Below are positions 9,521 through 48,424 of a stretch of DNA of 64,000 nucleotides, piece after piece; position 1 is the stretch's first letter, and every line of letters begins with the position of its first letter. The notes beneath the pieces are model-generated. The model had not been told where the DNA came from. It saw only the letters and a list, made by a program, of their open reading frames with translations, and did no database searches. Origin of the DNA: Nitrososphaeria archaeon (lineage in GTDB: Archaea > Thermoproteota > Nitrososphaeria > JACIWG01); the NCBI GenBank assembly GCA_963752255.1, contig CAVVXT010000003.1, positions 96,001 to 160,000 on the forward strand, read 5' to 3'. The position numbers and the translations under genes are program-made.

Positions 9521-9940
9521 TTAAGACACCATGGTATCTACTATATCTTTTACCGCCTCCGCGAATATCGTTATGTCTTTTTCTGTATTATAAAAATAGG
9601 TCGATACTCTAACAACCCCTTTTACCTCTCCTAGAACCTTTTTCGTATAAACTTGAGCACATAGATGGCCGCTCCTAACTTCAATATTGTTTGTGGAATA
9701 CAAGATCATAGCTATTTCAACAGGATCCATATTTTCGATATTAAAGGTAAATATATCTGTACGACGTTCAATAGATGGCCCATAGGTCTTTATTCCATTA
9801 ACATTCCCTAACAGTTGATTAGCTAATCCTATTAGGTTTCGATCATGTTGAAGAATTCCGTTTAAACCGACTCTCTTAACGTATTCGAAAGCATCAGCCA
9901 TTACCATCACTTCGCAATGAGCCACAGTTCCAGCCTCAAA
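9521..9940 (-). pseudogene. 5'-truncated SufS/Csd-type cysteine desulfurase (C-terminal third only)
   Basis: Begins abruptly at FEAGT; has VRSGHLCA and VRVSTYFYNT; the PLP-lysine region is missing. Confidence 0.85.
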
Positions 9941-15191: not shown

Positions 15192-15238
15192 AAAAGACTT
15201 ATTTTTGATAGATATTTACCTACGACGATGAATAGAAG

Positions 15239-16036: not shown

Positions 16037-16122
16037 CTAAAGATCTATCGATTGGGCGAGACATGTGTCTCCTATGGTAACTCCTGATAAAATAAATAAA
16101 TTAGAAAAGAGTTAGGCCCGAT

Positions 16123-16617
16123 TTACAAGCTTATTCTAACCTTATTTTCTAGGTCACTGTTGAATATATCTTCTTTTACAGTATTCTTTCTAGAAATAAT
16201 CAAGAAAGTAGCTTGTTCTGTTAATGGAATAGGAGGCACATGCCATGTTCCTTCATTCATCACTATAGCTTTAGTTCCGTCAAATATGAATGCCTCCAAT
16301 TTGTTCATTTCTGGTTTTGCTTTTGGATCTCCTAACCTATTTGGTGGCGCAAAAGGAAAGATGCTATACCCTTCAAGTGGAACAAATATTTCTGACGTCT
16401 TTACATGCCGCTCCATGCTTGTGAACTCAAAAGGCTTCCTTTTACATAGAAGAAAACTTGCCGCTCTTTCTTCAATTGGAAGATGAACAACTTCATCCCA
16501 GTAATCTAGGGCAGGTGTTGATGCACTCGGTTTTGTTTTCGGTAAGCCGATAATCGTACCAAATGGGCTGAATCCTTTATCTGTTAATAATTTTGCTTTA
16601 ACTTCCACGTATTTCAT
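16123..16617 (-). CDS. Ureidoglycolate lyase-like cupin
   Basis: LT..GFSPFG, MERH..TSE.F.PL, GTWH; likely start MKYVEV. Confidence 0.8.
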   Translation of the reverse strand: MKYVEVKAKLLTDKGFSPFGTIIGLPKTKPSASTPALDYWDEVVHLPIEERAASFLLCKRKPFEFTSMERHVKTSEIFVPLEGYSIFPFAPPNRLGDPKAKPEMNKLEAFIFDGTKAIVMNEGTWHVPPIPLTEQATFLIISRKNTVKEDIFNSDLENKVRISL

Positions 16618-16732
16618 ACCATCATTATAATATGCCCTGCAATGATTTATAATGATTTTTCTTAAACGAGGACTTTTTTTCATAATGTCCTCTAATATTT
16701 TTAATATCTATTTTCTTTGAATATTGTTTCAA

Positions 16733-17443
16733 CTAATAGCCGTGAAAGCTTTCTTTTTTAATTTTCGTTGAATCTACGTTCAATTTTATAAGCAGATCTT
16801 CCATGGCATTCACCATCATAGGTGGGCCACATATGTAAAATACCCTATTTAGGTAATCTGGGACTTCTTTATTAACCATTTCACCAGTTATTACACCTTT
16901 GTAACCGACCCATTTTTCTTGAGGTTCGTCTAGAGTTAAGATAACCTTCAAATTCGGGTTCTTCTGCTGCATTTCTTCTAATTCTTCTCTGAAAGCTATA
17001 TCAGCTTCTGTGTGGTTTCCGTAGATAAGCGTGATTTTGGTTGCAAGTTTAAGATCTGAGCAGTATCTGCATATACTTCTCAGAGGTGTAATTCCAATCC
17101 CTCCTGACAGTAAAACAATGCCATCATACTGACCTTCGAAAATGAAATTTCCGTATGACGCATCTATTTTAACCCGGTCGCCAACCTCTAAAGAGTCTAA
17201 AGCGTTCGAGAATTCGTGCCCTGTCAACTTCTTCGTGAACTCTATAAATTCCTTTTCAGTTGGACTACTCGAGATCGAAAAAGGCTTTTTAGCTTCTTCC
17301 CCTTGAATTTTTAATGTTAACAACATAAACTGACCAGCCTTATAATTAAAAGATTGAGGCCTGTTAAACCTAAAACTCTTAACATTATTTGTTCTTTTAA
17401 TGATTTCTTTAACTTCTGTCTCAAACATCATTATACTCACCAT
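16733..17443 (-). CDS. FAD/NAD(P)-binding ferredoxin-reductase-type oxidoreductase
   Basis: GQF, PFSISSSP, GGIGITP, YICGPP, ESF. Confidence 0.9.
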   Translation of the reverse strand: MVSIMMFETEVKEIIKRTNNVKSFRFNRPQSFNYKAGQFMLLTLKIQGEEAKKPFSISSSPTEKEFIEFTKKLTGHEFSNALDSLEVGDRVKIDASYGNFIFEGQYDGIVLLSGGIGITPLRSICRYCSDLKLATKITLIYGNHTEADIAFREELEEMQQKNPNLKVILTLDEPQEKWVGYKGVITGEMVNKEVPDYLNRVFYICGPPMMVNAMEDLLIKLNVDSTKIKKESFHGY

Positions 17444-17540
17444 CTTATTTTACTAATTTAATAGAGTTTCCGGTAGACTGTGAATAACTTTTTTGAATTA
17501 TGAAGAATTTATAAGTCTCTATTTATTGATATTATAACAT

Positions 17541-17906
17541 ATGACTGTTTTGCAAACTAAACGTTTAAGGTACGGTGAATACGCTATTTTTTTGATTATA
17601 TTAATTCTAGGCCTGTCTGGAATCCTTTATTTCGGAGGCGTGATAAAATATGGTATCGAATTCTATGTGAGCTTATTACTAGCAGCTGTAGGCGTCTATA
17701 CCGTCGCCTTTGATTTATATTATTTGAAATTTATGCGTAGGTACGTAAGAAACTATATGTTCCTTTGGGGTTATATCTTAGCTTCAATAGGTTTCGCGCT
17801 GTTCTTCGATTTATTTAATCATAATCTATTTCTAAATATTAGCATAGCTGTATTAATAGGCGCCTTGCTTGGGTTTGCCAGTATAAGATATATTGGAAAA
17901 CAATGA
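17541..17906 (+). CDS. Hypothetical 4-TM membrane protein
   Basis: Four hydrophobic segments. Confidence 0.65.
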   Translation: MTVLQTKRLRYGEYAIFLIILILGLSGILYFGGVIKYGIEFYVSLLLAAVGVYTVAFDLYYLKFMRRYVRNYMFLWGYILASIGFALFFDLFNHNLFLNISIAVLIGALLGFASIRYIGKQ

Positions 17907-18010
17907 CTAATCAATATTAGTCGAACTACTACTACGTTATTAGAATATTTTATATTTTATTGATACTATCCTTATAAGTATACTGTTTATATTTTTAAGT
18001 TAGGATAAAA

Positions 18011-18523
18011 ATGTCAGACGTTTATGAAAAAATTAAAGGGGAACAGGGATTAGCTGAAAAGGTAATGTCAAACATACCCGGGTACCATGGATACAAAGAG
18101 AAAGAACTCCGGAGAGAAACCGATAAATCAGTCAGAGAATTTTCTGCTCAGAAGCTGAAAGAAGCAAAGATCGCTCTCGATGTAGCAGTCAGAGAAGTTT
18201 CAGATTCAGGAAATGTCGGTGCGTTTCAATACGCCAACCGCGCAATGGCTGTACTATATAGAGTGACAAACAAAATCGAGCACGCTGATTACGGTTATTC
18301 CGGCTTCTTCGACGCCATCAAGGTAAGAGAGGATAAGTTGGATAAGCTGATCGAATTCGACTATGCTCTAATTGACCTTTGCAAGTCAATGCAGGAAACA
18401 GCAACTACTGTAGCAGGTCAGCCTGACATAGATAAAGCGTTCGACGATTTTAGAAAAAAGCTACTTGAAGTAGAATCTAAACTTAATAATAGGGAAAGGG
18501 TTATTTTCCAGTTGAGTAAGTGA
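18011..18523 (+). CDS. Conserved hypothetical helical protein
   Basis: IPGYHGYKEKELRRETDK..R and ADYGYSGFFDAIKVRE..L..L..FD motifs. Confidence 0.75.
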   Translation: MSDVYEKIKGEQGLAEKVMSNIPGYHGYKEKELRRETDKSVREFSAQKLKEAKIALDVAVREVSDSGNVGAFQYANRAMAVLYRVTNKIEHADYGYSGFFDAIKVREDKLDKLIEFDYALIDLCKSMQETATTVAGQPDIDKAFDDFRKKLLEVESKLNNRERVIFQLSK

Positions 18524-18558
18524 TGCCGCAAGTTATTGAATGGTCAACAGAATTTTAG
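18523..18558 (+). pseudogene. 11-codon stub of a translationally coupled downstream gene (MPQVIEW..., SPFH-like N-terminus)
   Basis: TGATG stop/start overlap followed by MPQVIEWSTEF*; family assignment from memory. Confidence 0.45.
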
Positions 18559-18568
18559 TCTTTTATTT

Positions 18569-18588
18569 TTGTTCATATATATGAACAA
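18569..18588. repeat. Perfect 20-bp palindrome TTGTTCATATATATGAACAA
   Basis: Read directly. Confidence 0.8.
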
Positions 18589-18653
18589 TTATTTAGGAAA
18601 TTTTTTATTAAAGTGATTAAGGTGCAGCACAAATTTATTATTAACAACTATCT

Positions 18654-18680
18654 TATCAAGCTTGATATCAAAGTTGATAT
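18654..18680. repeat. Palindromic motif copy A: TATCAAGCTTGATATCAAAGTTGATAT
   Basis: 22-bp core 18656-18677 with 2 mismatches to the perfect palindrome. Confidence 0.9.
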
Positions 18681-18844
18681 TCTCAAAGGAAAATCTGTAA
18701 ATAGGTATTCTGTAGAGAAGGCTATAAAATTGACTTAAGATAAGTATTGTTCAATCAAAAGTACATTAGATAAGGAAATTATCATATGAACTAGGTGAAT
18801 AACCGAATAGATCGAGACACATTAACTTTCTCCCAAGTTAAAGG

Positions 18845-18852
18845 ATATATAA
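18845..18852 (+). promoter_or_regulatory. Probable TATA box of the dehydratase gene
   Basis: ATATATAA about 25-32 bp upstream of GTG 18877, purine-rich BRE-like bases before it. Confidence 0.5.
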
Positions 18853-18876
18853 GTGACGATTTCAAACATTTAGTAA

Positions 18877-20052
18877 GTGTCATATTTGAAAATAGCAGAA
18901 GTTAAAGCTCTAATTTCCAAACCTCCACGTTCTTTTGTTTTTGCTAAAGTAACGACAAATGATGGAATCGTGGGTTACGGTGAAGCAGCATCGGATGGTG
19001 CGCCAGTAGTACACGCGGAGAGCATTAACACTCTAGGAAAAACTATAATTGGTATGGATCCTTTCAACACTGAACTAGCCTATTATACTATGGACAATGC
19101 CTTCTTTGGATGGAATCCGGAAGCAACCATGCGCGCGACAGGCGCAATAGACGAAGCCCTATTTGATATCAAAGGTAAAGCGTTGAAGACACCAGTCTAT
19201 AACCTGCTCGGCGGAAAATTTCGGGATAAAGTAAAATTATACTGTCATATCGTTCTAAGGCCAGGAGAGAAAGCTACTCCTGAAACTGTTGCAGAGGGCG
19301 CTGTGCGCCAAGTTAAACTCGGTTTTAGAGCAGTCAAGTTCGATCCTTTTACAACAGTCATGCGAAGTGATATGAATGAAAAGGAGATAGGTTTCGTTTC
19401 AATACCTCAGGGAATGAATTTTTCCCATGAGCTGACGCTTAAAACTCTTGAAATGGTGAAGTCGGTTAGAGACGCCATTGGACCTAAGGTCGATCTGATG
19501 CTAGATATTCACGGTAGATTCGATGTTGAATCAGCGATAAGAATAGGGAAAAAACTTGAACCATTTGACCTTCTCTTCTACGAAGAGCCTATTCCACCAA
19601 CTAACGATGAGCTTCTCGCCTATGTACGTAAAAGGGTAGATGTACCAATCTGTGTAGGTGAGAGAAGGTATACGTTGGAAAGTTTTAGAAGATTATTTGC
19701 ACTTGATGCAGCGGATATAATTATGCCAGACCACTCTAGGAATGGTGGCATAACGTGGGTGAAGAAGATAGCGGACATGGCTCAAACTTATTTTGTTCCG
19801 GTCGCACCTCATGTTGTCTTCTCTAGCCCTCTAAACGCTGTAATCAGTGCTCAGAACATGGTTTCTATACCAAACTTCCTAATTCACGAATCCATGGGTC
19901 CTCAAAGACTTGAACTCTACAAAGATGTTTTAAAGCCAAACGTGTTACCTGAAGATGGTTACATTAAAATTTCAGACAGACCTGGTCTAGGCGTTGAACT
20001 GAATGAAGAGAGCCTTGAAATCGAATATGATGAGAGCCTGATTGGATTATAA
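18877..20052 (+). CDS. Mandelate racemase/muconate lactonizing enzyme family sugar-acid dehydratase (DgoD-like)
   Basis: G.VGYGEA, ALFDIKGKAL..PVYNLLGG..R, K.K, D.HGR, EEP, GER, APH, PGLGVE. Confidence 0.9.
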   Translation: MSYLKIAEVKALISKPPRSFVFAKVTTNDGIVGYGEAASDGAPVVHAESINTLGKTIIGMDPFNTELAYYTMDNAFFGWNPEATMRATGAIDEALFDIKGKALKTPVYNLLGGKFRDKVKLYCHIVLRPGEKATPETVAEGAVRQVKLGFRAVKFDPFTTVMRSDMNEKEIGFVSIPQGMNFSHELTLKTLEMVKSVRDAIGPKVDLMLDIHGRFDVESAIRIGKKLEPFDLLFYEEPIPPTNDELLAYVRKRVDVPICVGERRYTLESFRRLFALDAADIIMPDHSRNGGITWVKKIADMAQTYFVPVAPHVVFSSPLNAVISAQNMVSIPNFLIHESMGPQRLELYKDVLKPNVLPEDGYIKISDRPGLGVELNEESLEIEYDESLIGL

Positions 20053-20574
20053 TCTCATCCTCCCATTTTGTACCCCTTTGGAAGCCCTATTGTAACGTTT
20101 TAATCCATTTATTCTGAGGACTGAATATAATTTTTTAAGATCAACATTAGTTTTTGCAGTAATATCTTTTATTGACGCGCCTTCTTTATACAACTTGATT
20201 GCCGTGTTTAACGATTTAATACTGTCTTCTCTGCTCCTTTTAACAAATTTTAACTTCCAATTAAGAAAACAATTTTTAAATTTTTCAAAGTCCTTAGACT
20301 TGGCCAGTGGAGGATTAATGGAGAAGAAATCGATAATCGACTTTAACTCATCATATTTTGTCACAGAATAGACGTAAATTGCATGGTGTGTGACCCTTTT
20401 TGGTTTAAGGACAGAAATCTTTCCAACCCCGAAAAAAGCCTGAATCCTTCTGATTATAATATTGTTCTTGCTTGTCACAAAAAATTTAGGATAGTAATGG
20501 TTATGCGACAATATTATAGAGAAATTACCTTGACCATCGACAAATCCGACAACATAGTCTGGAGAGATGCCCAT
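20047..20574 (-). CDS. Single-motif LAGLIDADG homing-endonuclease-like protein with C-terminal HTH
   Basis: YVVGFVDGQGNFSI helix, FFGVGKI, YVYSVT, IIDFF..NP..K.KDF; C-terminal AIKLYKEGASIKDITAKTNVDLKKLYSVLR. Confidence 0.85.
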   Translation of the reverse strand: MGISPDYVVGFVDGQGNFSIILSHNHYYPKFFVTSKNNIIIRRIQAFFGVGKISVLKPKRVTHHAIYVYSVTKYDELKSIIDFFSINPPLAKSKDFEKFKNCFLNWKLKFVKRSREDSIKSLNTAIKLYKEGASIKDITAKTNVDLKKLYSVLRINGLKRYNRASKGVQNGRMRL

Positions 20575-20648
20575 TATACGGTTATCGACAAATCCTAAAT
20601 AATTAAATCTTTCTAGGATATAAAAGAAGACTCTGTGTATTAAAATTT

Positions 20649-20966
20649 CTATTGAACATGCCTTCTTTTTATTTCAGATATCGCTTTTGTAAGTGTTAGC
20701 TTGGCAATAGAACGTGGAGATACGTTAAACTGGTTATAGAGCCGATTTATCATCGACGGTAATATGAACGATACACCGTAACCAAAGATGTTAGTAAGAA
20801 AAACCTCAAAGTCCTCTATATGATCCGCCAACTCTTCTTCTTCTCTTAAGTTGTTGCTGCTCATGAACTTGTATATGATCGCATTCTTTGCATTTTCCCC
20901 TAAAAATGATAAGCTATAGTTTATTACCTGTACAACCTTAACTTTAGTTTGGGAGTCAAGTATCAT
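20649..20966 (-). CDS. Small archaeal hypothetical protein (DUF3227-like)
   Basis: SLSFLGENAK.AI.Y...IEDF...L..IFG.G pattern; likely start ATG 20966. Confidence 0.6.
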   Translation of the reverse strand: MILDSQTKVKVVQVINYSLSFLGENAKNAIIYKFMSSNNLREEEELADHIEDFEVFLTNIFGYGVSFILPSMINRLYNQFNVSPRSIAKLTLTKAISEIKRRHVQ

Positions 20967-21539
20967 CTTTATTGCACACCAAATCAATTTGTTATCATCA
21001 AGACAAATTTTATATAACAAAGCAAAATTTTGATAACAAGCGGCAAAGAAAAAATTAATCAAGAAATTATCCGGCAGATAATATAAATTATTTCTCCAAA
21101 ACTCCCTGGGTGGGCCATTTAATGATGTAGACACCATGGTATAAACACAACAAACTAGGCAATCATGGAAATTGGCAAATCCTGCTTAAGTCAGCCAAGT
21201 AAAAATGAACAGGTGCTTTTCAGCAGCAAATTATTATAAAAACCCTCTACTTCTAAAATAGTTGGATTTTTATTGACAAATAATAATGATGTTTTCCTGT
21301 CACTAAAACTAAAAAGTCAATTAGACCCATATGACATGAACCTATCACTAAGGGCCAATAGCGTCAAAGCACCCCCCTGTCATGATAGGAGCCTTATGGT
21401 GGGCGATAAATCGATAGATACTTATCATAAATTATAAAATTATGGGCTCTGATAATAATGTACTCTAATGATTTATTTAATTTGTTCCTTAAAACTTAAT
21501 ATTAATAATATGTTATGTTTTTCATAACCAATAATTTAT

Positions 21540-21566
21540 TATCAAGTTTGATATCAAGCTTGAATA
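21540..21566. repeat. Palindromic motif copy B: TATCAAGTTTGATATCAAGCTTGAATA
   Basis: 26/27 identical to copy C. Confidence 0.9.
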
Positions 21567-21748
21567 ATTAAGACAATTGCTAGAAGAACAGATAAGATAA
21601 TTTTACACTAGTATCTCCTTCCTTTCCGACTCTTAAGCCATTTGTCCAAGACTTTATATCCTCTTATTTACAAATTCCCACATCTTTGGCACTCCATCAG
21701 ATGATCGTTCGTAGTTTATTTGAATACATTTCTTCTAGAAAATAGAGG

Positions 21749-22768
21749 TTAGGGTCTAAAGACTATGTGTACTTTGTTTCCTGTCGGGTCGGTTTTCTTT
21801 AGGTATGCTAACTTGAAGCCTGACGCGATTATTGGCTGTTCAAGTTCTATGCCCTTTTCTTGTAGGTAGTTGTATGCGGCTTCAAAATTTGACACATTTA
21901 TTGCTATGTGCGTACGTGTTTCCTTTTCATGCGCTTTCATGACTTCTATTTTTCCAATACTTGTCCCTGTTAGCATTATCGATGATGGCCCTTCTTCTTT
22001 TGCGAAGCCGAAGGTTCCAGCGTACCAGTCAGCTATTTGCTTAGCGTTCGCGGTTTCTGTTGGATATATCGCTATATGTTCAACGCCTAAGAATATAGAT
22101 TTACCTTTTACCTCCCATATCCATTGCATGCAGTCTTCCACCTTCCTTTTTATGGATTCAAAGTTGCCCGACTTTACTAGGTCTTTTTGTATGAGGTTTG
22201 AGCCCAAGTTTACTGCTGCCGCGCCCGCTCTTATCCAACTCGAAATGCCTTCTTTTGTGGCCTCTACACCTCCTGAGGGCATAAGTTTTAACCATGGAAA
22301 CGGACCGAGCAAGTCTTTTATAAATTGTGGGCCTAGTACGTCTGCTGGAAATATTTTGATTATGTCAGCGCCCATCTCTTCTGCCATGTATATTTCTGAT
22401 GGAGTACTACATCCTGGAATATATAAAATATTGTATCTATTAGACGTCTTTGCCACATCTGGGTTGAATACTGGTCCGACGATAAAGTTTGCTCCACAAT
22501 TAATATAGAGTGAGGCTGCTGATGGTTCGACTATCGTGCCAGCTCCTAGGACAACGTCTGGAAACTCTCTATCCTTCCATTTTATGAGTTCGCTGAAGAC
22601 TTGATATGCTAATGCGCCACGGTTTGTGAACTCAACCACTTTAGCTCTGCCTTCGGCGCATGCCCTAACAATTTTTTTAGCAGTCTCCAAGTCTTCTTCA
22701 TAAAATGTTGGGATTAGCCCGATTTCGAGAACACTTGAAACAACCTCATGTCTCATCGACATCGACAT
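21749..22768 (-). CDS. eda: KDPG/KHG aldolase fused to a C-terminal VOC (glyoxalase-like) domain
   Basis: EFTNRG, GAGT, PGCSTPSE, KIFPA, MPSGGV; then VEHIAIY...WY..TFGF...IEVM...HIAINV...DP.GN.VH. Confidence 0.88.
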   Translation of the reverse strand: MSMSMRHEVVSSVLEIGLIPTFYEEDLETAKKIVRACAEGRAKVVEFTNRGALAYQVFSELIKWKDREFPDVVLGAGTIVEPSAASLYINCGANFIVGPVFNPDVAKTSNRYNILYIPGCSTPSEIYMAEEMGADIIKIFPADVLGPQFIKDLLGPFPWLKLMPSGGVEATKEGISSWIRAGAAAVNLGSNLIQKDLVKSGNFESIKRKVEDCMQWIWEVKGKSIFLGVEHIAIYPTETANAKQIADWYAGTFGFAKEEGPSSIMLTGTSIGKIEVMKAHEKETRTHIAINVSNFEAAYNYLQEKGIELEQPIIASGFKLAYLKKTDPTGNKVHIVFRP

Positions 22769-23246
22769 ATTTTCTTACCCCATAAAAGCGTGAGAAACTC
22801 GTCTTCTTAAATTTTTATCTGATATACGTCTCATTGTTAATAGAAAGATGATAAATAACTGATCAAGCCTACCGCCTAAAGATCTTCCTAGAGGGCCTAA
22901 AGGAATCGACAACACATGAACACCTAGTTAAATAACGAGCGGCATTTTCGTATCCAATTGAAAGTATGATAAGTCTCTTAGAATATTCATTGTCAGGAAC
23001 AGAATAAAAAGTTAGTTAATGTAATTCTACTAAACTGAGATAAACACTAGGCCATCAAGACGATTGATTCACCCTACATTTTTGGTACATGTTTTCTTTT
23101 TCACGATGCTAAATAAATCTTCAATCCCAACGTGCCTATCTTGTTATGTAACTATTATTTAGTTAATGAATAAAGTTATAAACCTTTTAATATCAAAACA
23201 AACAGATGCAGAAAAAGATAGCGCTTCTCTTGTTGGGGGCGTAAGG

Positions 23247-24824
23247 ATGAAGGGTGGCTACAAGATCGTCCTCACAGCCGATAGAACACTCATGAGCGAA
23301 TACGGCGACAACATATTCCTCGGATTCAGCGCCTGTATGCCCATAGGAGTGATCCCAGACAAGCTCTACTTTTCCATGTTCTGTCCTTCCGTCAAGGCCA
23401 ATAAGGACGGTTCAGCAGAGGTGGCGCTGTGTGGGACGAGGAAGGTGGAGGCTTCGTTGTTGAAATATGGCTTTCGAAGGGACGAGGTCATAGTAGCACA
23501 TCCAGATCACATCGGCGAGGCTGTTGGGCAAAAGACGAAGGTTGTGGGGGTCACGGAGAACGACCCTCTTGGAATTGGTCCCGCCACATCCACCTTCACG
23601 CAGTTGTTCTCCGGAGAGGCTTACATGGCGGTGAAGTTCAGAGAACTCCTAAACCATCCGGCCGTCAAAGAGTTTCATCCGAAGATAATTGTTGGTGGGT
23701 CCGGAGCATGGCAGCTTGAAGACTCCAGGATCCGAGGAGAACTGGGGATCGACTGTGTGGTGAATGGGGAAGGAGAGGAAGTGGTCGGCCCCCTCTTTGA
23801 AAAAGCTGTCAGGGGCGAGCCATTACCAGGGTTAGTCCATGGAAATGTAGTTCCAGAGGAAAGTATTCCCACGATAGTTGATCCTACTATCTCTGGTATC
23901 GTAGAGATCGCTAGGGGATGTGGGAGAGGTTGTGACTTCTGCGTGCCTACAATGCTCCACTACCGTTGTCTTTCCTTGGATCACATCCTAAAGGAGGTGG
24001 ACATCAACCTGAAGGCCAATAGACAGCCCCTCCTGCACGCGGAAGACGTCTTGAGGTACAAGGCTAAGGGTTTAGAGGTCAACGGCGATGCCGTGACGGG
24101 CCTCTTCAAAGCCGTGAAGAATCATCCCGGCGTCAGAACTATCGAGATAAGCCACTTCGCTCTCTCATCAGTTCTGAGCGCACCTGAAGTTGTTGAGGAA
24201 ATATCAAATATACTTGGTTTAGATGGTGATGATGCTTTGCTAGGGGGTCAGACAGGCATCGAAACAGGTAGTCCTAGGCTGATTAAGGAACACATGCTAG
24301 GGAAATGTAAGCCCTTTCGTCCAGAAGATTGGCCAGATGTTGTTCTCAATTCCTTTGAGGTTCTCTCTAAGAACCATTGGGCTCCATGTGCTACGCTCAT
24401 CCTCGGCCTTCCAGGTGAACAGGAAGAGGACATTAACCTCACGATAGAACTCGTCGAGAAATTAAAGAACTTTGAGAGCCTGATTGTGCCTCTTTTTCTA
24501 GTCTCCTTGGGTGGATTGAAGGACAAGTCCGATTCCTTCACGCTCCAGAGGATGACACCTAGGCATTCTGAACTCTTCTTGAAGTGTTGGGAGCACAACT
24601 TCCGCTGGACCCCCAAATTCTTGGACGACTTTACAAAGGGCAGACGCGGAATGAGGATCCTACTATCCTATGGCATTAGATACACTGAGAATCTGATTCA
24701 GGAATGTCAAAATCACTATAATTACGACATGCTTCGAATGATAACGGATATTAAAAGTGGCAGGAAAACGATAGCTCCTCTATCAAACCGTCTGTTGAAC
24801 CGATTGTTACATTTTGTGAAGTGA
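23247..24824 (+). CDS. B12-binding-domain radical SAM protein
   Basis: KIVLTADRTLMS, IIVGG.GAWQ, EIARGCGRGCDFC (CxxxCxxC), GIETGS. Confidence 0.9.
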   Translation: MKGGYKIVLTADRTLMSEYGDNIFLGFSACMPIGVIPDKLYFSMFCPSVKANKDGSAEVALCGTRKVEASLLKYGFRRDEVIVAHPDHIGEAVGQKTKVVGVTENDPLGIGPATSTFTQLFSGEAYMAVKFRELLNHPAVKEFHPKIIVGGSGAWQLEDSRIRGELGIDCVVNGEGEEVVGPLFEKAVRGEPLPGLVHGNVVPEESIPTIVDPTISGIVEIARGCGRGCDFCVPTMLHYRCLSLDHILKEVDINLKANRQPLLHAEDVLRYKAKGLEVNGDAVTGLFKAVKNHPGVRTIEISHFALSSVLSAPEVVEEISNILGLDGDDALLGGQTGIETGSPRLIKEHMLGKCKPFRPEDWPDVVLNSFEVLSKNHWAPCATLILGLPGEQEEDINLTIELVEKLKNFESLIVPLFLVSLGGLKDKSDSFTLQRMTPRHSELFLKCWEHNFRWTPKFLDDFTKGRRGMRILLSYGIRYTENLIQECQNHYNYDMLRMITDIKSGRKTIAPLSNRLLNRLLHFVK

Positions 24825-25443
24825 GTTGAATGGTATTCAAAAGGATTTTACTGGTAAGGTCTTACAAAAGAAGAAATTTGAGCTCCGCTTTAGTTGCTTC
24901 GTTCGCTATCGAGCTAGTGGTTTATTCGAGACTAACGACGATTGGAGAGCGTCCTGAAGCTTAGATAAGATAAGTGTCCTAATACTTGTATATTTTGAGA
25001 ATCCAAACTCCTTAAACGTGTGCTGCACCTAGGAGAATTAGCCAGTTAGTTTTGTCCCATTAATGTATAAGGCTAGTTTCAGAGGCTTAATCTAAAGATG
25101 TCTGGTCACAGGAGCTAGCAAGTCAATTATGTTAGATTATCAAAGTTAAAGTTTATTGGTATATGGCATGATCATCCAAAAATTGAGTGAAGTTTTTTAC
25201 CTGTGCCAAAAGTTCTTGGTGGAGGTCACTTTTTATCTTCTGACAGCCATCTTCCAACAATTCAACTACTTTAAATGCTTTAGAAGAACAGTTTACACTC
25301 ACATAGTACGCATTTAGAATTCCATTCCAAGAATTTCTTTCAGTACTTCACTCATAACTTTTTATGATGATCATTTTTTTAAAATATGAGTAATTTTATT
25401 ATCGTAAAACTTTTAAATAAACTATTATTTAGTTTAACTTGTT

Positions 25444-26088
25444 ATGACCGTTGTTACTATATCAAGAGAAGCAGGAAGCTGGGGTGATGAAATTGCAAGA
25501 AGGGCTTCAGGCCTTCTTCAATATACTTTGATCGACAAAGTTACAATGATAGAAGCTGCCACAAAAACTGGGATATCTGAATCTGGGTTTATTGACTTGG
25601 ATGTTGATTCATACCAATTTAGAAATTTAACTGACAGACTTTTAGGTAGAAAGGAGCCTGAAATTAAAGTCGCGATTCCGACAGTCACTTCTGCAAGTGG
25701 AATGGATTTTAGAATACAAACTTTGGATGCTAAACAATGTATGGCAACTCTCCAGACTGTCATCACTTTTTTGAGTAAAAGTGGAAATATAGTTATTTTA
25801 GGAAGAGGGGGACAAGCTATCCTTAAAGATGCCAAAGATGCTTTGCATGTGAAGATTATTGCACCTTTTGAAGTCAGAGTAAGAAGAGTGATGGAAAGTC
25901 AAGGATGCAGTGAGAATAAGGCGTTTTGGTTTATCAGAGATAGGGATAAAGCTATAACGCAATATCTTCAAAGATTTTTTGGCATTGAATGGAATGATAA
26001 CACATTATATCATCTTGTAATTAACACGGGAAAATTGGATGTTGAACAATCTGCAGCTGTAATAGTAAATTCAGTTAGAGTACTGTAA
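25444..26088 (+). CDS. Cytidylate kinase-like family protein
   Basis: VTISRE.GS.G.EIA, VILGRG, APFEVR..R, YHLVINT. Confidence 0.88.
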   Translation: MTVVTISREAGSWGDEIARRASGLLQYTLIDKVTMIEAATKTGISESGFIDLDVDSYQFRNLTDRLLGRKEPEIKVAIPTVTSASGMDFRIQTLDAKQCMATLQTVITFLSKSGNIVILGRGGQAILKDAKDALHVKIIAPFEVRVRRVMESQGCSENKAFWFIRDRDKAITQYLQRFFGIEWNDNTLYHLVINTGKLDVEQSAAVIVNSVRVL

Positions 26089-26247
26089 GATTAATAGTTA
26101 TAGGAATCTTTGGATTTCTTATTTTATAATAGAACTAATTAGATTAAATTATGCAACACTTAAGCACTATATTATAAAATTTCTAAACTTCTTTCTTATT
26201 GCAGAAGTAGGAAGACAGCCATATTGAACCCCAATTTATGCTTATTG

Positions 26248-27231
26248 TTATACGAGACTTGTGACAGGCTTTGGTCTATAAGGCTCTTCTAAGTACTTCA
26301 TATCTGCGTCTGAGAGCTTGATATCCAATGCTTCAACTGCATCCTGTAAATGTTCTGGAGTTGATGTACCTATTATCGGAGCTGTGACACCTTTGTGAAT
26401 AAGCCATGATATGGCTATCTGAGTTGGCTTAACACCTTTACTTTGCGCCAACTCAATGACTCTTTTTACGATCTCAGCGTTTTCTGGTGGTTCTATATAA
26501 TCCCTATAGCCATTACTATTTGGTTGTAATCTCTTGATATCGTCTTGTCCTATCAGAAGCTTTCCATCCTTTAAATATCTTCCAGAAAGAACCCCAACCG
26601 CAGTAGGGCTCCAAGGTATGATGCCTATGTTCTGGCTTTTACATAAAGGCACCATCTCTCTCTCCTCTTCCCTATACAGCAGATTCCACTTATCCTGCAT
26701 ACTCACAAACCTCTCAAAACCCAACATCTCACTTGTGTACAAAGCTTTAGAGAACTGCCAAGCCCACATACTTGAAGCACCAATATACCTCACAACACCA
26801 CCCCTAACAAGACAATCAAGAGTGAAGAGAGTCTCTTCAATAGGCGTCCCGTAATCCCACCTGTGAATCTGATAAAGGTCAATATAGTTTGTCCTAAGTC
26901 TCCTAAGAGATTCACTCGCCTGCCATAATATATGCTTCCTTGAAAGTCCACTTTGATTCGGCTTCTGCCCCATAACATTGTAAACCTTAGAAGCTATCAC
27001 AACATCTTCCCTAACGTCTTTGAGTAATTCGCCTACAATCTCCTCAGACCTACCAACCGAATAAACGTTCGCAGTATCAAAAAAGTTAACACCTAAATCC
27101 AACGCCCTATCGACAACCTTCTTAGCGCCATCCCTCTCAACCATCCATTTCTCTGCGTTCCCAAAAGACATACAACCAACCACAATAGGAGAAACCTTCA
27201 AACCAGAAGACCCAAAACTAACATATTTCAT
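26248..27231 (-). CDS. Aldo/keto reductase (YajO/AAD-like)
   Basis: GCMSFG, FDTANVYS.G.SEE, YIDLYQIHRWD, IPWSP. Confidence 0.93.
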   Translation of the reverse strand: MKYVSFGSSGLKVSPIVVGCMSFGNAEKWMVERDGAKKVVDRALDLGVNFFDTANVYSVGRSEEIVGELLKDVREDVVIASKVYNVMGQKPNQSGLSRKHILWQASESLRRLRTNYIDLYQIHRWDYGTPIEETLFTLDCLVRGGVVRYIGASSMWAWQFSKALYTSEMLGFERFVSMQDKWNLLYREEEREMVPLCKSQNIGIIPWSPTAVGVLSGRYLKDGKLLIGQDDIKRLQPNSNGYRDYIEPPENAEIVKRVIELAQSKGVKPTQIAISWLIHKGVTAPIIGTSTPEHLQDAVEALDIKLSDADMKYLEEPYRPKPVTSLV

Positions 27232-27495
27232 ACTAAAACACCATCTTTTTACCTACTTCAATCTTATAAATGTTCCTCATACACTTAGAATTGAAGGTCT
27301 CTAATATTAATATCCAGTTTACATTACACCCTATGTTTTGAGATATAAGAGTGAGTATTTGGATAATATATAATGAAATCATTTTGCTCTTTTTTTTCTC
27401 ATAATTAATATGTTCAAGTTTAATTCTAAAAATACCTTCCATTAGTTTAGATTTCATATAAGCACGCTTATCATGTTCTGATTCCTTTACCCTAC

Positions 27496-28524
27496 TCACA
27501 TTTTTGGTTCAACTTGGACTTTGAGAGCTTTAGCACTATTTACCAGGTCAAATCCTTCTTTCAGTCGATTAAGTGGAAAAGTATTGGAAACGAGTTTCTC
27601 TACATTTATCTGCTTCTTTGAAAGAACTTTCAAAGCCCTCTCAACATGAGCTGGAACATGATCATAACTTCCTGTGACCTTGAGTTCACCATAATGTATA
27701 ATGTTGGGGTCCAATTCAATATTCGTTTGAGGGTAGGTTCCACCGAAAAACACAATTGTGGCCGATGAAGCCACCGCTTTAAAAGCACTTTCTATAGCAG
27801 TTCTGTTTCCTGTCGCTACAATTACAGAATCAGCACCATATCCTCCTGTGAAATCTTTAACAGCTTTAGACATATCTTCCCTCAAAGGGTTGACTATTGA
27901 GTCGGCACCTAGCTCGATTGCCATTTTGAGTCTGCTTTCAATAACTTCACTTAATATAACACTTGCTCCTGAAAGCTTAGTAATCTGTAGGTTAAGCAGA
28001 CCCATTGGTCCTCCGCCTATGATCAAAACTGTCTCACCTGGTCTTGGTGATATTATCTCATTCGCATGTAAACACACTGCAATCGGTTCTGTAAACGCAG
28101 CTTCCAAAAAACTTACACTTTCTGGGATTCTGAACAAAGACTTGGCAGGCGTCTTTGCATATTCAGCAAATCCTCTAACGATATTACTTTTATTTTTGCA
28201 CAAATTCGTTAAACCTTTTTCACAATACTTACAAATTCCGCATGAGACAATTATTTCAGGTACAACTCTATCTCCTATAGAGAAATCCTTAACCGAACCG
28301 CCAACTTCAACAACGTCGCCACACCATTCATGTCCAGAAAGACCATAGCTTTCTTTACCATATGGAAACATCTGCCTCTTATACACACCTTGATAACTTC
28401 TTACATCGCTAGGGCAGATACCGATTCTTTGAACTCTTATCAAAACTTCGTCTTCCCTAGGAGTTGGAATGTCGACATCTTCTATGTGGATGTCCATCGG
28501 ACTATAAAGTAATGCAGCCTTCAT
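27496..28524 (-). CDS. Zn-dependent alcohol/polyol dehydrogenase (MDR family)
   Basis: GICPSD, GHE, C..C..C.......C, GGGPMG; likely start MKAALL. Confidence 0.9.
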   Translation of the reverse strand: MKAALLYSPMDIHIEDVDIPTPREDEVLIRVQRIGICPSDVRSYQGVYKRQMFPYGKESYGLSGHEWCGDVVEVGGSVKDFSIGDRVVPEIIVSCGICKYCEKGLTNLCKNKSNIVRGFAEYAKTPAKSLFRIPESVSFLEAAFTEPIAVCLHANEIISPRPGETVLIIGGGPMGLLNLQITKLSGASVILSEVIESRLKMAIELGADSIVNPLREDMSKAVKDFTGGYGADSVIVATGNRTAIESAFKAVASSATIVFFGGTYPQTNIELDPNIIHYGELKVTGSYDHVPAHVERALKVLSKKQINVEKLVSNTFPLNRLKEGFDLVNSAKALKVQVEPKM

Positions 28525-28819
28525 CTTTTTTCTATTAAAATTAGACATACACTTCACTATGAAAAAAAGTGAAAATAAGTTTTTAAACTTTTCCATGAAT
28601 TGATGTAACATCTAAAGAAACTGAAAAGAGCTCCTAACAATAGTGAAAATATAATTAAAACTGATAAAAAATAAAGTCTAGCTGACATAGAAATAAAAAT
28701 AACGATTTTAATAAAAATAATTAAACTAAATTTTTGACTAAAAACAAATTTTTGATAGTTAAATTAATATAAAAATGCCTACAGGCATTAAAAAAAGATA
28801 AGACCAGCTATATTCAATT

Positions 28820-29562
28820 TTAGATTTTAAGTATTTTTGCTATATTACCTCCCAAAATAAGTTCTCTTTTCTTCCGATCAGGGACTGCTACATTGATTTT
28901 CATGATTTCAACTTGCATAGATGGTCCGGGCGTATCTGTCCCAAAAACCAATTTCTCTGCTCCCGCCTTGTCCACAGCTTTCCTTAAAGAGTCTACATTG
29001 TTGTTCATTGTTGTATCCAAGTAGAGGTTATCATATTTCATAGCTTTAGAAATGGCGTCTTCTATGTTCTGCCAAAACCCCATATGCGCCATAATTAGAG
29101 GGACATCCGGGAAAGTTTCCGCCATGTCCCCAAACTGTGCCGGAGTGCAGTGAGGACAATCGCCTTGGCCGTGACTTATTATCGGGATCTTGAGCTTTGA
29201 ACATTCTTCGAATATTACATCCGTCAGTGAATGTGCGTTAAGGGAAAAATGGTGTATAGCTGGGTGAAGTTTTAAACCCTTGAATCCTAGTTTGTTTACA
29301 CACCTTTCCAGTTCCTTCACTGCTTTTTCTTAGACCATGGGTTTACAAGTGAGAAGCCGATTAACCTATTGGGATATTTTTTTATTGATTCAAATATATA
29401 GTCATTGTTTTCGACAATATTAAATGAGTATTCAGGGAAACCGAATATGATCGCTTTGTCAACGCCTGCAATATCCATTTCGCTAATAAGCCTTTCAGGA
29501 GTTTGATACACTTCAAGCCCCGGTTCAGGTTTTCCTATGTGGTTGTGAACGTCTATTATCAC
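28820..29562 (-). CDS. Amidohydrolase_2 family protein, split by a frameshift in an A-run near 29325
   Basis: IIDVHNH N-terminal part plus GLKLHP, AHMG, FGTD C-terminal part. Confidence 0.85.
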
Positions 29563-29694
29563 ATTTTCAGGAATAAGCTTTTGTATATTTAAGTATTGAG
29601 ATTTTATAAAAAATTTTTCTACAAAAATTTCACCTTTATAATTGTTAGTTGACGCTAAAATATTTAAGTAGGTAAATTTTCACATAATGAAATT

Positions 29695-30099
29695 ATGAAA
29701 GTGTACAAGGAGTCTATTGATTTTAAAACGTCTAAAGGGATCAGTTTTATGGATATAACTGAGAAAATATCTGATGTAGTAAGTAATTCAAAGGTTACGA
29801 ACGGTATAGTTTTTCTTTTTGCGCCACATGCAACAGGAGCCATAATAATCAACGAGTATGAGAGTCGGCTCCTAATAGATATCAGGAAATTCTTGGAGAA
29901 GCTTATTCCTATAAATGAACCCTATGAACATCCAGAGAATGCGCCATCGCACATTCTCTCTTCTTTCTTCAGACCGTCATTGGCTGTTCCTCTTACACAA
30001 GGCATAATACAGCTTGGAACTTGGCAGAGTATAATTTGGGTCGAAGTCGAACCTTGGTCACGCAATAGGAATGTCTATATTACAATAATTGGCGAATAA
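29695..30099 (+). CDS. yjbQ: YjbQ/UPF0047 protein
   Basis: HATGAI.INE, Y.H..NA.SH, LGTWQ. Confidence 0.9.
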   Translation: MKVYKESIDFKTSKGISFMDITEKISDVVSNSKVTNGIVFLFAPHATGAIIINEYESRLLIDIRKFLEKLIPINEPYEHPENAPSHILSSFFRPSLAVPLTQGIIQLGTWQSIIWVEVEPWSRNRNVYITIIGE

Positions 30100-30146
30100 T
30101 TTTAAATCTTAGCACTTACAAATAAATGTAATCGGCGTAGAATACC

Positions 30147-30860
30147 GTGAATATCGCCGCTGTTTCCTTTGACGTGTGGGACACCCTTCTAAGGCTCAAG
30201 CCTTTCTATTTTAGGATTGCTAATGAAATCGGCTTAGAGAACAATAATAGCCCAACTAAGGTCTACGAAGATATGTTGAAGAACTATGTGGTGTTAAAAG
30301 AATATAGAAGTAAGGGAATGCTAAGGTATGATGATATCGTTAACCATTGTTTGGAATTGTCATCAGAGAATTTAGGTATCGATATAGAACTTCTAAAAAG
30401 GTCAATAACGAGAGCCATCCTTAATGTTGAGCCAAATGAAATTCTTGTTAAAGAAGCGCCTCATATATTAAGTGAACTTAAATTTCAAGGGAAACAGATT
30501 GTAACGCTTGGGAATCTGATCTTCTGGCCTGGTTATTATAATAGGATTCTTTTAGAAAGAACTGGTTTAACTAAGTACTTTGACTCTCAGTTATATGCGG
30601 ATGAAATAAAATTCTCAAAACCTAGTAAAGAAATTTTTTCGAGGTTGTGTCATGTGTTAAGTCTTGAACCTCAGAGAATTGTTCACATAGGAGATAATAA
30701 GATAGAAGATTATGAAGGCGCATTAAATGTAGGCTTTTACGGAATCTGGGTTAATCCCTTATATAATAATAGTGTTGAAATCATGGATAAAAGTGCGATA
30801 GTGAATTCAATATCTCACATACCTAAAGTTGTTAAAATATTTGATGGGGATCCCATTTAA
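30147..30860 (+). CDS. HAD-family hydrolase
   Basis: FDVWDTL, SKP..EIF, HIGD...EDY.GA. Confidence 0.88.
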   Translation: MNIAAVSFDVWDTLLRLKPFYFRIANEIGLENNNSPTKVYEDMLKNYVVLKEYRSKGMLRYDDIVNHCLELSSENLGIDIELLKRSITRAILNVEPNEILVKEAPHILSELKFQGKQIVTLGNLIFWPGYYNRILLERTGLTKYFDSQLYADEIKFSKPSKEIFSRLCHVLSLEPQRIVHIGDNKIEDYEGALNVGFYGIWVNPLYNNSVEIMDKSAIVNSISHIPKVVKIFDGDPI

Positions 30861-30901
30861 TGTCCCAACCATATAATAATGTGGTTAATTCATGATATAT
30901 G

Positions 30902-31357
30902 TTAGTCAATTGATATTTCTGATATTATGGCTTCATTTAGTGCTATGATATCTTCTGTCCTTAATTCAAGAAGTTTTTCCCTTGTACCGCCCCCACAGAA
31001 TATGGTGTTATAATTCACTAGAGATTTGTCGATGATTGTTTTCATCTTTATCTTATGGCCGACCGAAGGAGTGGCGCCTGGAAGGAAACCGCTGATCTGT
31101 TCCGCTTGATCAAAGGGTACGAGCCGGACTTTCTTTACGCCTAGCAAAGAAGCAACGCGATCCAGATTAACTTTCTTATCACCGGGTACAATCAACAGTA
31201 TGTATTCTCCTGTATCCATTTTAGAAACCAGGTTCTTCGTAAGCCTATTTAATTCGAGCCCTGCAACCTTAGCCGCATCCGCTGTATGAATCGTCTCAGG
31301 TTTCTCAATAAATCGATGCCATATTTTCTTCTCTTTAAGAAATTCTTCAAGACTCAT
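30902..31357 (-). CDS. YbaK/EbsC aminoacyl-tRNA deacylase
   Basis: T..TA.AA, KNL, SGF.PG..P.VG, CGGG. Confidence 0.9.
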   Translation of the reverse strand: MSLEEFLKEKKIWHRFIEKPETIHTADAAKVAGLELNRLTKNLVSKMDTGEYILLIVPGDKKVNLDRVASLLGVKKVRLVPFDQAEQISGFLPGATPSVGHKIKMKTIIDKSLVNYNTIFCGGGTREKLLELRTEDIIALNEAIISEISID

Positions 31358-31484
31358 TGTTTTTCACCGAATATGCTCTAGTTTAAACGAGTTATGGTCG
31401 TCCTAATGGGTACTAAAAGATAGCGTCATGTTACTTATTCTATATTTTCACAAAAATCGAACTAAATTCGTTTAACATATTGTA

Positions 31485-31511
31485 TATCAAGCTTGATATC
31501 AAGCTTGAATA
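31485..31511. repeat. Palindromic motif copy C: TATCAAGCTTGATATCAAGCTTGAATA
   Basis: Perfect 22-bp palindrome at 31487-31508. Confidence 0.92.
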
Positions 31512-31655
31512 GGATAAATAGGAGGAAATAAAGGTGAACAGTTTAACCAATTCTATGTTTTTATGGTGATTCCAATAATAATTCCTAAATTTTCCATCAC
31601 CTTTTAAAAAAAGCTTATATGAGGCAAAAAGTTAGCGGTTAAACGTGATATATAC

Positions 31656-32537
31656 ATGTTAGAAAGCACAAAAGAAATGTTAGAGAAGGCGAAAGAGGAG
31701 AAATATGGTATCGGACTATTTGTTATTTTCAATTTGTCCTTTATTAAACCAGTAATTGAAGCCGCTGAAGAAGCACATTCTCCTGTAATGATTGGAGCTA
31801 CATATGGGCTCGCTGAGGCAAGTGGAGGTGAAAGCTTCCTAGCGCATATGAGGGTCGCCGCTGAAGAGGCTAAGATTCCTGTAACAGTTCACCTGGACCA
31901 TGGAAAAACCTTCGAGGAGGTGATGACATGTTTAAAGTACGGATGGACTTCTATGATGTTTGATGCCGCAAATAAGCCTCTAAAAGAGAATATCCAATTA
32001 ACACGTGAAGTGGCAAGGGCATGTCATGCTGCGGGAGTACCGATCGAAGCCGAGCTTGGTGAAATGCCTGTCGTGAAAGACCAAAACAAAGCTGAATTTC
32101 CAAAGGAAATGATGACGAAACCGGAAGAAGCAGAGATTTTTGTCAAGGAAACAGGAATCGATATATTAGCTATTTCTATTGGACAGATTCACCATTCTCC
32201 TCAGATGGAGAACGGTATGCACCCAGTGAAAAGAGTCGCAAAATTAGATTTTGAGAGGCTTAAAAAAATTAGAGAGGTTACAGGAAACACCTATTTGTGT
32301 ATGCACGCAGGTTCACATGTGCCTTTCGAAGCTTTGGAGAAAGCTATTTCCATGGGGATTGTTAAATTAAACATTGGCATGGCTTTGTCATCGGTTTGGA
32401 CAGACACCTTAAGAAAAACAATAATAGAAAACCCAAATGAAGCGATGGCGCATAAAATAGTGGAGCCTGCTGAAAAAGCGGTAAAAAAAGAAGTTGCCGA
32501 GTATCTAAAAGTTCTGGGATCAGCGGGTAAAGTATAA
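31656..32537 (+). CDS. fba: Class II fructose/tagatose-bisphosphate aldolase
   Basis: HLDHG, SMMFD, EAELG, LAISIGQIH, H.GS, K.NIG. Confidence 0.9.
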   Translation: MLESTKEMLEKAKEEKYGIGLFVIFNLSFIKPVIEAAEEAHSPVMIGATYGLAEASGGESFLAHMRVAAEEAKIPVTVHLDHGKTFEEVMTCLKYGWTSMMFDAANKPLKENIQLTREVARACHAAGVPIEAELGEMPVVKDQNKAEFPKEMMTKPEEAEIFVKETGIDILAISIGQIHHSPQMENGMHPVKRVAKLDFERLKKIREVTGNTYLCMHAGSHVPFEALEKAISMGIVKLNIGMALSSVWTDTLRKTIIENPNEAMAHKIVEPAEKAVKKEVAEYLKVLGSAGKV

Positions 32538-33099
32538 GATGTGCACCTAGCACTCATTTACCAAATAAAATTTGAAGGAGAATCTTTCTCCTTCTAGGCT
32601 TCCTACTTTTTTTGTTTCTTAGACATATTTATCTAAATTTATTAAATATCTAGTAAAAATAACAATTTCCCTAACATATTCGGGTATAATATTATTAAGT
32701 TTTCAAATGTTTCCTTATGGCCACAACTCAAACTCTACCATATTTATGATAAACCTACTGATAAATTCTATGTATATCGAGGCGTTAAAATTAAGGTCGT
32801 ACCTTCTCACAGTATTTTCAGAGTTTCTTCTCGATCGAGATTCAAGAATTTCACCGAACATAAATCTTCAAAGACATTCGAATGCTGGTATTCCTGTATT
32901 GTAAATCCCGCCTTGTTGAAAAACAGTTTTAATATCTTCACACCGTAGTCAAGCCATGTAGCATACCTCATGCACTTGAATTTAAATCAAAATCAAGGGA
33001 TTTTAAGTTTATTTATCAATTATAACGTGGATAACTTACATTTTGAATTTAACGTTCCCAATTGCAAGAGAAAGACGATATTAATAGTGATAGGTTCAT

Positions 33100-48423: not shown

Positions 48424-48424
48424 G

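Follow-up and report, generated by a model that had tools for sequence, protein, structure and literature searches.

Related systems and the locus under study

Homodimeric LAGLIDADG endonucleases read (pseudo-)palindromic DNA sites of roughly 22 base pairs (bp), and the targets of I-TnaI and I-Vdi141I are likewise pseudo-palindromic and roughly 22 bp long. In regulons of the archaeal TrmB family, a palindromic site is placed upstream of sugar genes and of the regulator gene. Features of both kinds are found in the DNA considered here, a window of 64,000 nucleotides (nt) from a Nitrososphaeria archaeon (assembly GCA_963752255.1, contig CAVVXT010000003.1, positions 96,001 to 160,000): three copies of a self-nested palindrome lie close to genes of sugar oxidation, and between two of these copies a gene encodes a protein of 175 amino acids (aa) that combines a LAGLIDADG domain with a helix-turn-helix (HTH). 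The palindrome may be the operator of this protein, for which bacteria offer a described parallel. According to part of a review (PMC3384342), the bacterial sporulation and cell-division regulator WhiA (DUF199) joins a LAGLIDADG scaffold without catalytic acidic residues to a C-terminal HTH and controls its own gene too, while the homing endonuclease I-TevI regulates transcription by occupying an operator that overlaps the promoter of its own gene.

The 175-aa protein shares with WhiA the loss of a catalytic acidic residue and the C-terminal HTH. In contrast to WhiA, which is a bacterial monomer with two LAGLIDADG domains, it is archaeal, has one such domain and is predicted to form a homodimer; both the second LAGLIDADG-like domain and matches to the WhiA-specific Pfam models are absent. 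Since it has a single domain, lacks a WhiA match in Pfam, comes from an archaeon and is nearest to archaeal rRNA-intron enzymes, the protein is, judged by its sequence, an independent domestication, and membership of the WhiA family is excluded. With I-TnaI (5gkk) and I-Vdi141I (3e54), its best structural matches, it has size, fold and a predicted dimer through the LAGLIDADG helix in common. It departs from them by a glutamine or leucine in place of the catalytic glutamate, a shorter β1–β2 hairpin, a better developed HTH, a basic tail and a gene that lies outside introns, within a conserved metabolic locus. I-TevI, in turn, is a GIY-YIG enzyme and a still active nuclease, whereas the present protein has lost its nuclease centre and apparently targets several host genes. 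From the TrmB family the locus differs both in the sequence of the site and in the fold of the candidate regulator, and Pfam and NCBIfam scans of the open reading frames (ORFs) of the locus revealed no TrmB-type gene. The element is probably of an ordinary kind, an operator, with an unusual form and an unusual reader. The 22-mer at its centre appears in the main text of no paper of the literature searched, and no archaeal LAGLIDADG regulator was found there by title or abstract. To our knowledge, hardly any transcription regulator of Nitrososphaeria has been characterised, and we know of no cultured members of their heterotrophic soil and peat lineages.

A 26-bp palindromic unit kept across genera

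A preliminary description of this DNA, made from its letters, had reported a dispersed 22-bp palindrome in three intergenic copies with zero, one and two mismatches. The copies themselves are real: TCAAGCTTGATATCAAGCTTGA occurs perfectly in copy C, with one mismatch in copy B and with two in copy A (Table 1), and at least three such matches were reached in 0 of 100 dinucleotide shuffles (shuffle mean 0.00). If the NN positions at both centres are left free, all three copies become exact, at a shuffle mean of 0.01. Reading of the flanks reproduced the agreement of copies B and C at 26 of 27 bases, ORF positions place all three copies between genes, and the distances given earlier are correct for the dehydratase start (Table 1), the 3′ end of the eda-like aldolase gene (185 nt) and the fba start (147 nt). 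Some points of the description required revision. The unit is longer than 22 bp: in the window, TA comes before every copy and TA or AT after it; with a TA on each side belonging to the unit, it acquires a strict 12-bp period. The conserved core is hence 26 bp, TA-TCAAGYTTGA-TA-TCAARCTTGA-TA, that is, two 10-bp palindromes TCAAGCTTGA in a strict 12-bp frame. The copies are also not dispersed. In the whole assembly of 2,107,113 bases (19 contigs, 2.1 Mb, 94.7% complete; the window is part of contig C3), the search at up to two mismatches returned only the three copies of the window, which form a local cluster spanning 13 kb. When the 220-nt flanks of the copies were aligned in both orientations and searched for repeats, nothing common was found beyond the ~26 bp, which speaks against a longer repeat or a mobile element. 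Neither RNA families nor tRNAs were found in the window.

The scan of the genome and its relatives that had been suggested as a check detected the motif at syntenic places in seven of the nine other genomes of the family. Including the source, 8 of the 10 family genomes, from four of the five genera, contain 17 copies with at most one mismatch, all of which lie outside ORFs of at least 90 aa; a random occurrence inside genes, which would have spoken against a functional site, is not what is seen. The two family genomes without the motif (G003 and G006, genera g3 and g2) are 68% and 85% complete. Outside the family, a single AT-rich match with one mismatch was found in 191 genomes of 13 other families (of the 201 genomes sampled from the class, one, G131, is unpublished and adds a negative only). 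Motif positions are syntenic between genera that have a common gene order; elsewhere, gene orders and the genes adjoining the motif differ from genus to genus. Around the 17 copies the flanks bear no relation to each other, with positions beyond the TA carrying ~0.1 bit, while the free NN positions favour G and C/T and the adjoining TA is favoured in 23–26 of 34 oriented sites. The constancy of the 18 fixed positions is partly by construction, as these positions served to find the copies. That mismatches fall only in NN is correct for the window; in the relatives, by contrast, 5 of 34 oriented half-sites also deviate at position 3, with G in place of A. Reading of the TCAA/TTGA half-sites by a protein is compatible with the data.

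The genes that the copies face are largely of a few kinds. Six copies face a 105–110-aa ORF followed by the LAGLIDADG–HTH ORF (genomes G000, G001, G002, G007, G008 and G009), three face a dehydratase gene or an OsmC gene plus a dehydratase gene, four a Zn-dehydrogenase/ADH_N gene, one an aldehyde:ferredoxin oxidoreductase gene, and three lie at a YbaK-like gene that diverges from fba or from an ABC permease gene. The distance from the motif to the start codon ranges from 18 to 575 nt, and, as read by eye, the motif invariably precedes the AT-rich, TATA-like boxes of the genes that it faces. A short, symmetric, intergenic site that persists between genera while its flanks diverge is what would be expected of an operator, one of three functions considered in the preliminary description. 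Because the motif is long, symmetric and rare, is kept across four genera as a bare 26-mer and is always intergenic, and because the genes whose 5′ ends it faces form a coherent set, it is very probably a protein-binding regulatory site.

An assembly artefact had been named as a further concern. Copy A is spanned by independently assembled contigs of two other public runs, each from a different study (X1 record 1, 18196–20177, and X5 record 17, 18130–18869), and copy B by a contig of one such run (X1 record 4, 21285–21793). Among the rows listed for these contigs, differences occur in the flanks (for example at 18642, 18699 and 18704–18711) and none within 18656–18677. Together with the seven other assemblies that carry the motif, this removes the concern. 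Another independent contig (X5 record 22) stops at 21543, right where copy B begins; short-read assemblies may break at such palindromes, and further copies at contig ends in fragmented relatives could then be missed.

A LAGLIDADG–HTH protein as candidate binder

The preliminary description overlooked a likely binder, the 175-aa protein whose gene lies between copies A and B. It shows both the LAGLIDADG fold and the sequence motif, matching PF00961 (LAGLIDADG_1) with an expectation value (E) of 2.8e-10 (41.4 bits, cut-off 23.1). Matches to HTH_7 and to resolvase-type models are weak, as is one to a Cbp1-type NCBIfam model (E 0.013). At E up to 10, the Pfam scan lists LAGLIDADG_1, HTH_7, PPIP5K2_N, DUF2802, HTH_28 and HTH_23, and no WhiA model. 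The structure model, with a mean predicted local distance difference test (pLDDT) of 80, consists of an endonuclease fold (residues 1–105) and a three-helix bundle (115–155), and its best fold matches are the archaeal homodimeric I-TnaI (Foldseek E 3e-8) and I-Vdi141I. The metal-binding acidic residue at the end of the LAGLIDADG motif, which an active enzyme needs, is absent from all seven orthologues: where I-TnaI, I-OnuI variants, I-PanMI and three 23S-intron relatives align with VDGEG or VDAEG, four orthologues have glutamine (VDGQG; genera g1, g4 and g5) and three leucine (VD[CS]LG; genus g2). The gene is also not found in an intron, in an intein or in a patchy mobile setting, as it has the same neighbours in eight genomes of four genera. 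The orthologues are strongly basic (33–37 K+R versus 12–18 D+E; net charge of the window protein ~+21). Across the deepest split, identity amounts to 52% in the HTH region, 36% in the endonuclease domain and 27% in β3–β4, and the β1–β2 hairpin is shorter than in the enzymes of 23S rRNA introns.

A complex predictor supports a homodimer with a score of 0.70, the best of three controls scoring 0.00; the mark used is reached by 20 of 30 proteins solved as same-chain pairs and by 1 of 23 solved as single chains. Its runs agree in at least 96% of contacts with a partner pLDDT of at least 78, and the predicted symmetric interface comprises residues 3–15 (the LAGLIDADG helix), 35–43 and 90–91. As homodimeric LAGLIDADG structures have already been solved, this prediction may reflect mere likeness to them.

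Orthologues are extremely rare in public data: a word search retrieved six proteins, and two cluster representatives at E <1e-30 were found among 1.84 billion. A looser group of single-domain LAGLIDADG–HTH proteins exists, most of which have the catalytic glutamate, so that the architecture is older than the loss of activity. In the remainder of the class, the closest relatives are encoded within 23S rRNA genes (Rfam LSU matches) and retain the glutamate. Three of these loci (L040, L042 and L043 in genomes G191, G129 and G132) hold genes for proteins of 158–182 aa with the intact residue and presumably represent intron-encoded homing endonucleases. Genome G008 contains a second LAGLIDADG match at C1:87797. 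Proteins of 300–440 aa, among them P0026, P0027, P0031 and P0034, match the HTH part of the candidate regulator five to eight times in a row, an arrangement that recalls the CRISPR repeat-binding protein Cbp1.

Co-encoded neighbouring proteins

Just upstream of the regulator gene, a conserved gene encodes a 105-aa, all-helical protein. Its model is a four-helix bundle (pLDDT 89) whose only clear structural relative is PH0832 (2p9x) from Pyrococcus horikoshii (Foldseek template-modelling score 0.69–0.75; Z 11.4, root-mean-square deviation 2.4, 96 residues aligned), followed by acyl-carrier-like folds. Each family genome has two to five paralogues. A protein atlas offers a lead to NitrOD5 (PF11537) with a score of 0.88, 12% of the cluster members carrying that domain. 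At E up to 10, none of 13 orthologues of the 105-aa protein matches NitrOD5, while a paralogue of the source genome (G000:C7:76967-77245), which stands alone without a regulator beside it, does so at E 2.2e-4 but, with 22.3 bits, falls short of the cut-off of 27. NitrOD5 is described, in part of one paper (PMC5847659), as an output domain of Thaumarchaeota, found alone or fused to a receiver, that belongs to a "Death domain-like" signalling group and not to the DNA binders. From these models, the 105-aa protein looks like a signalling adaptor and not like a DNA binder. In genome G001, the conserved reading frame of its orthologue (L018:8032-8400) is interrupted by a stop at codon 13, ahead of the invariant INYSLSFLGENAKNAI block.

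A second neighbour, of 170 aa, is conserved at the locus in the same eight genomes and is a rival candidate for binding the motif. It has no DNA-binding signature, no informative family match and no solved relative, and the protein atlas returns hypothetical proteins only. The protein has more distant relatives in 30 of the 191 genomes from other families, and the motif is missing from these genomes. Among the ORFs scanned at 15000–33000, none other than the candidate regulator has a recognisable DNA-binding domain.

Proposed function and alternative explanations

Our preferred explanation is that the motif is the operator of the 175-aa protein, a WhiA-like, independently domesticated putative regulator of a small, lineage-specific sugar-oxidation regulon; we would put the probability of this reading at roughly 0.55. 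It is suggested by the fact that this is the only protein of the locus with recognisable modules for sequence-specific DNA binding, that it is nuclease-dead and basic, that its predicted two-fold dimer suits a palindrome and that its operon is directly served by a motif copy in six genomes. In the proposed mechanism, the protein would dimerise through its LAGLIDADG helices and the dimer would sit on the two-fold symmetric site of 22–26 bp. The better conservation of the HTH compared with the endonuclease domain suggests that the HTH and the basic tail may read the TCAA/TTGA boxes, with the endonuclease domain serving mainly as a scaffold for dimerisation and spacing. Part of the review cited above considers the same division of labour possible for WhiA (PMC3384342). 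The bound motif would then control Entner–Doudoroff-like sugar-oxidation genes in one uncultured family of Nitrososphaeria. Its location upstream of TATA-like boxes, 18–575 nt from the start codons, suggests an activator site and not that of a promoter-occluding repressor, although this is a guess from position only. A copy that precedes the regulator's own operon may point to autoregulation. The 105-aa helical protein encoded alongside, whose fold is not that of a DNA binder, may relay a signal to the regulator. The full scenario, in which an rRNA-intron-type endonuclease was domesticated into a predicted activator that retains a target as long as those of homing enzymes, in this case a nested palindrome of 26 bp, and receives the signal of a NitrOD5-like, Death domain-like adaptor, is put forward tentatively and is rather doubtful as a whole.

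Several observations weigh against the assignment of the motif to this protein. We infer the link between the two from position, symmetry and co-occurrence. The last of these failed as a discriminator, as three neighbouring proteins have the same phyletic pattern: orthologues of the 105-aa and 170-aa proteins occur in exactly the eight genomes that have the regulator. Moreover, the genomes without the motif are so incomplete that the whole locus may be unassembled there. No copy was found directly upstream of the regulator gene in G004 and G005, and in the source genome copy B is as far as 404–575 nt from the regulator unit. One dimer with two kinds of DNA-binding module is no obvious match for four equal TCAA/TTGA boxes, and two dimers or another protein could fit them equally well. 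The β1–β2 hairpin is shortened and β3–β4 is poorly conserved (27%), though the site is almost invariant. As LAGLIDADG–HTH proteins with a catalytic glutamate exist, the architecture alone does not imply a regulator, and the TATA-like boxes were only read by eye.

Among the alternatives, the motif could be a transcription-factor operator all the same, read by the 105-aa protein, by its 170-aa neighbour or by a regulator encoded elsewhere. Both neighbours have orthologues in the same eight genomes as the motif, the 105-aa gene is the first gene after it in six of them, and a pair of dimers formed by a small HTH-type protein would fit well on four equal boxes with their 12-bp period. We consider such a binder unlikely: the 105-aa protein resembles PH0832 and then acyl-carrier-like folds, its sub-threshold NitrOD5 link leads to modules that, in the part of the paper concerned (PMC5847659), signal and do not bind DNA, and G001 has retained all three motif copies despite the premature stop in its orthologue. 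The 170-aa protein lacks a DNA-binding signature and has relatives in 30 genomes devoid of the motif.

The preliminary description had placed two further functions beside the operator, for which the present analysis brought nothing in favour. That the motif marks chromosome segregation or organisation, as a centromere-like site or replication-origin element, is very improbable. Although a few palindromes clustered within 13 kb resemble centromere-like clusters as generally known, the genome has only three copies, these follow particular metabolic genes through the differing gene orders of the genera, and cumulative GC skew makes no marked turn at 18–32 kb. The scanned window ORFs (20 ORFs in one scan, 50 ORFs of at least 90 aa in another) encode no ParA/SegA-, ParB- or Orc1/Cdc6-like protein, so that the orc1/cdc6 gene flanked by repeats that marks an origin with ORB elements is absent from them. 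We give equally little credit to a recombination or homing target, or to what is left of the ends of a module-shuffling mobile element. A homologue of homing endonucleases does lie within the locus, and the genes adjoining the motif vary between genera; yet, the catalytic residue has been lost in all seven orthologues by two different substitutions, there is no integrase or transposase among the scanned window ORFs, and the otherwise unrelated flanks are alike over 26 bp only, at positions that are syntenic where genera share gene order. Least credible of all are a hairpin or cruciform, be it an RNA terminator or structural DNA, and a cloning-vector or assembly artefact. A perfect palindrome is able to fold back, but the arms covary no more than shuffled ones (0.094 versus a mean of 0.093; 246 of 500 shuffles as high), and asymmetric copies break the stem. 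AAGCTT-GATATC-AAGCTT is a series of restriction sites, HindIII–EcoRV–HindIII, as in part of a polylinker; variant copies destroy these sites (AAGTTT, AAACTT, AATATT), eight assemblies carry the motif, and the likeness is coincidental given that contigs from other runs bridge copies A and B.

On the preferred reading, motif, candidate regulator and sugar-oxidation targets make up a short, testable putative regulon. If the 175-aa protein indeed binds the site, it would be a separately arisen archaeal counterpart of WhiA, and the long, highly specific sites of homing endonucleases would be reusable for gene control. Such reuse would explain both the length and the rarity of the site, with three copies per genome. 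The protein would also provide a natural, nuclease-dead, homodimeric LAGLIDADG scaffold for DNA binding with a known palindromic target.

Genes around the motif and further observations

The features of the locus are collected in Table 1. Judged by family names, the cluster together with a glycerate-kinase-type gene ~25 kb away looks like an oxidative Entner–Doudoroff-like sugar route. Copy B is 404 nt from the start of the long ORF and 575 nt from the conserved ATG of the small-protein gene; G001 is similar in this respect, and in four genomes of genus g2 (G002, G007, G008 and G009) the motif lies 120–150 nt upstream of the small-protein/LAGLIDADG–HTH pair. Copy C is 129 nt from the YbaK-like gene.

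Table 1. Coordinates of motif copies and genes in the window (26-bp units for the copies, with the 22-mers in the last column)
Feature	Position	Strand	Remarks
Copy A	18654–18679	none	22-mer 18656–18677; 199–208 nt upstream of enolase-superfamily dehydratase gene
Copy B	21540–21565	none	22-mer 21542–21563; upstream of minus-strand small-protein/LAGLIDADG–HTH gene pair
Copy C	31485–31510	none	22-mer 31487–31508, perfect; divergent YbaK-like/class II aldolase spacer
Candidate regulator, 175 aa	20047–20574	−	LAGLIDADG domain (1–105), three-helix HTH (115–155), basic tail
105-aa all-helical protein	20649–20966	−	just upstream of regulator gene; ORF open up to 21137
170-aa protein	18011–18523	+	conserved locus neighbour in same eight genomes; rival candidate binder
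Enolase-superfamily sugar-acid dehydratase (gluconate/galactonate/mannonate dehydratase-like)	18877–20052	+	Pfam/NCBIfam; likely target of copy A
KDPG/KHG aldolase (eda-like) fused to glyoxalase-like domain	21749–22768	−	Pfam/NCBIfam; copy B past its 3′ end
Sugar-oxidation genes between copies B and C	26248–29562	−	Pfam/NCBIfam
Aldo/keto reductase	26248–27231	−	Pfam/NCBIfam; then 88-aa ORF
Zn-dependent dehydrogenase	27496–28611	−	Pfam/NCBIfam; relatives directly beside motif in other genera
Split Amidohydro_2 gene	28820–29320 + 29317–29562	−	Pfam/NCBIfam
YbaK/aminoacyl-tRNA-editing-domain gene	30902–31357	−	divergent from copy C
Class II fructose/tagatose-bisphosphate aldolase (ketose-bisphosphate aldolase, fba)	31656–32537	+	Pfam/NCBIfam; likely target of copy C
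DUF4147+MOFRL glycerate-kinase-type gene	56899–58362		~25 kb from cluster; no motif copy beside

The long spacer (404–575 nt) between copy B and the small-protein gene contains a G+C-richer patch at 21340–21430, which has no Rfam match and only tiny ORFs. The patch is kept in G001, although identity between the two genomes reaches 90% in this region. For the same reason, footprinting against this same-genus genome was uninformative, its intergenic DNA being too close at 90% identity. G001 also has an extra two-mismatch site at C118:862.

A single 14-bp unit, TATCAAGCTTGATA, occurs three more times in the source genome outside the window (C3:60004, C3:176046 and C5:79951), always between genes, where a rough estimate from base composition would predict ~0.02 sites. 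The neighbouring genes have no clear link to sugars and include unannotated genes, among them a 111-aa ORF followed by a peroxiredoxin gene, and an HxlR-like gene; the 111-aa ORF, which follows the site at C3:60004, is no relative of the 105-aa protein. These single units may be weak extra sites of the same putative regulator.

Four genes of the window appear to be split into two adjacent or overlapping ORFs, either by assembly frameshifts or as real pseudogenes. Besides the Amidohydro_2 gene of Table 1, these are the genes of a class I/II aminotransferase (46080–46484 + 46459–47148), of histidinol dehydrogenase (47145–47711 + 47692–48462) and of a class V aminotransferase (8468–9520 + 9521–9925). 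In G001, Amidohydro_2 is encoded by a single ORF of 288 aa.

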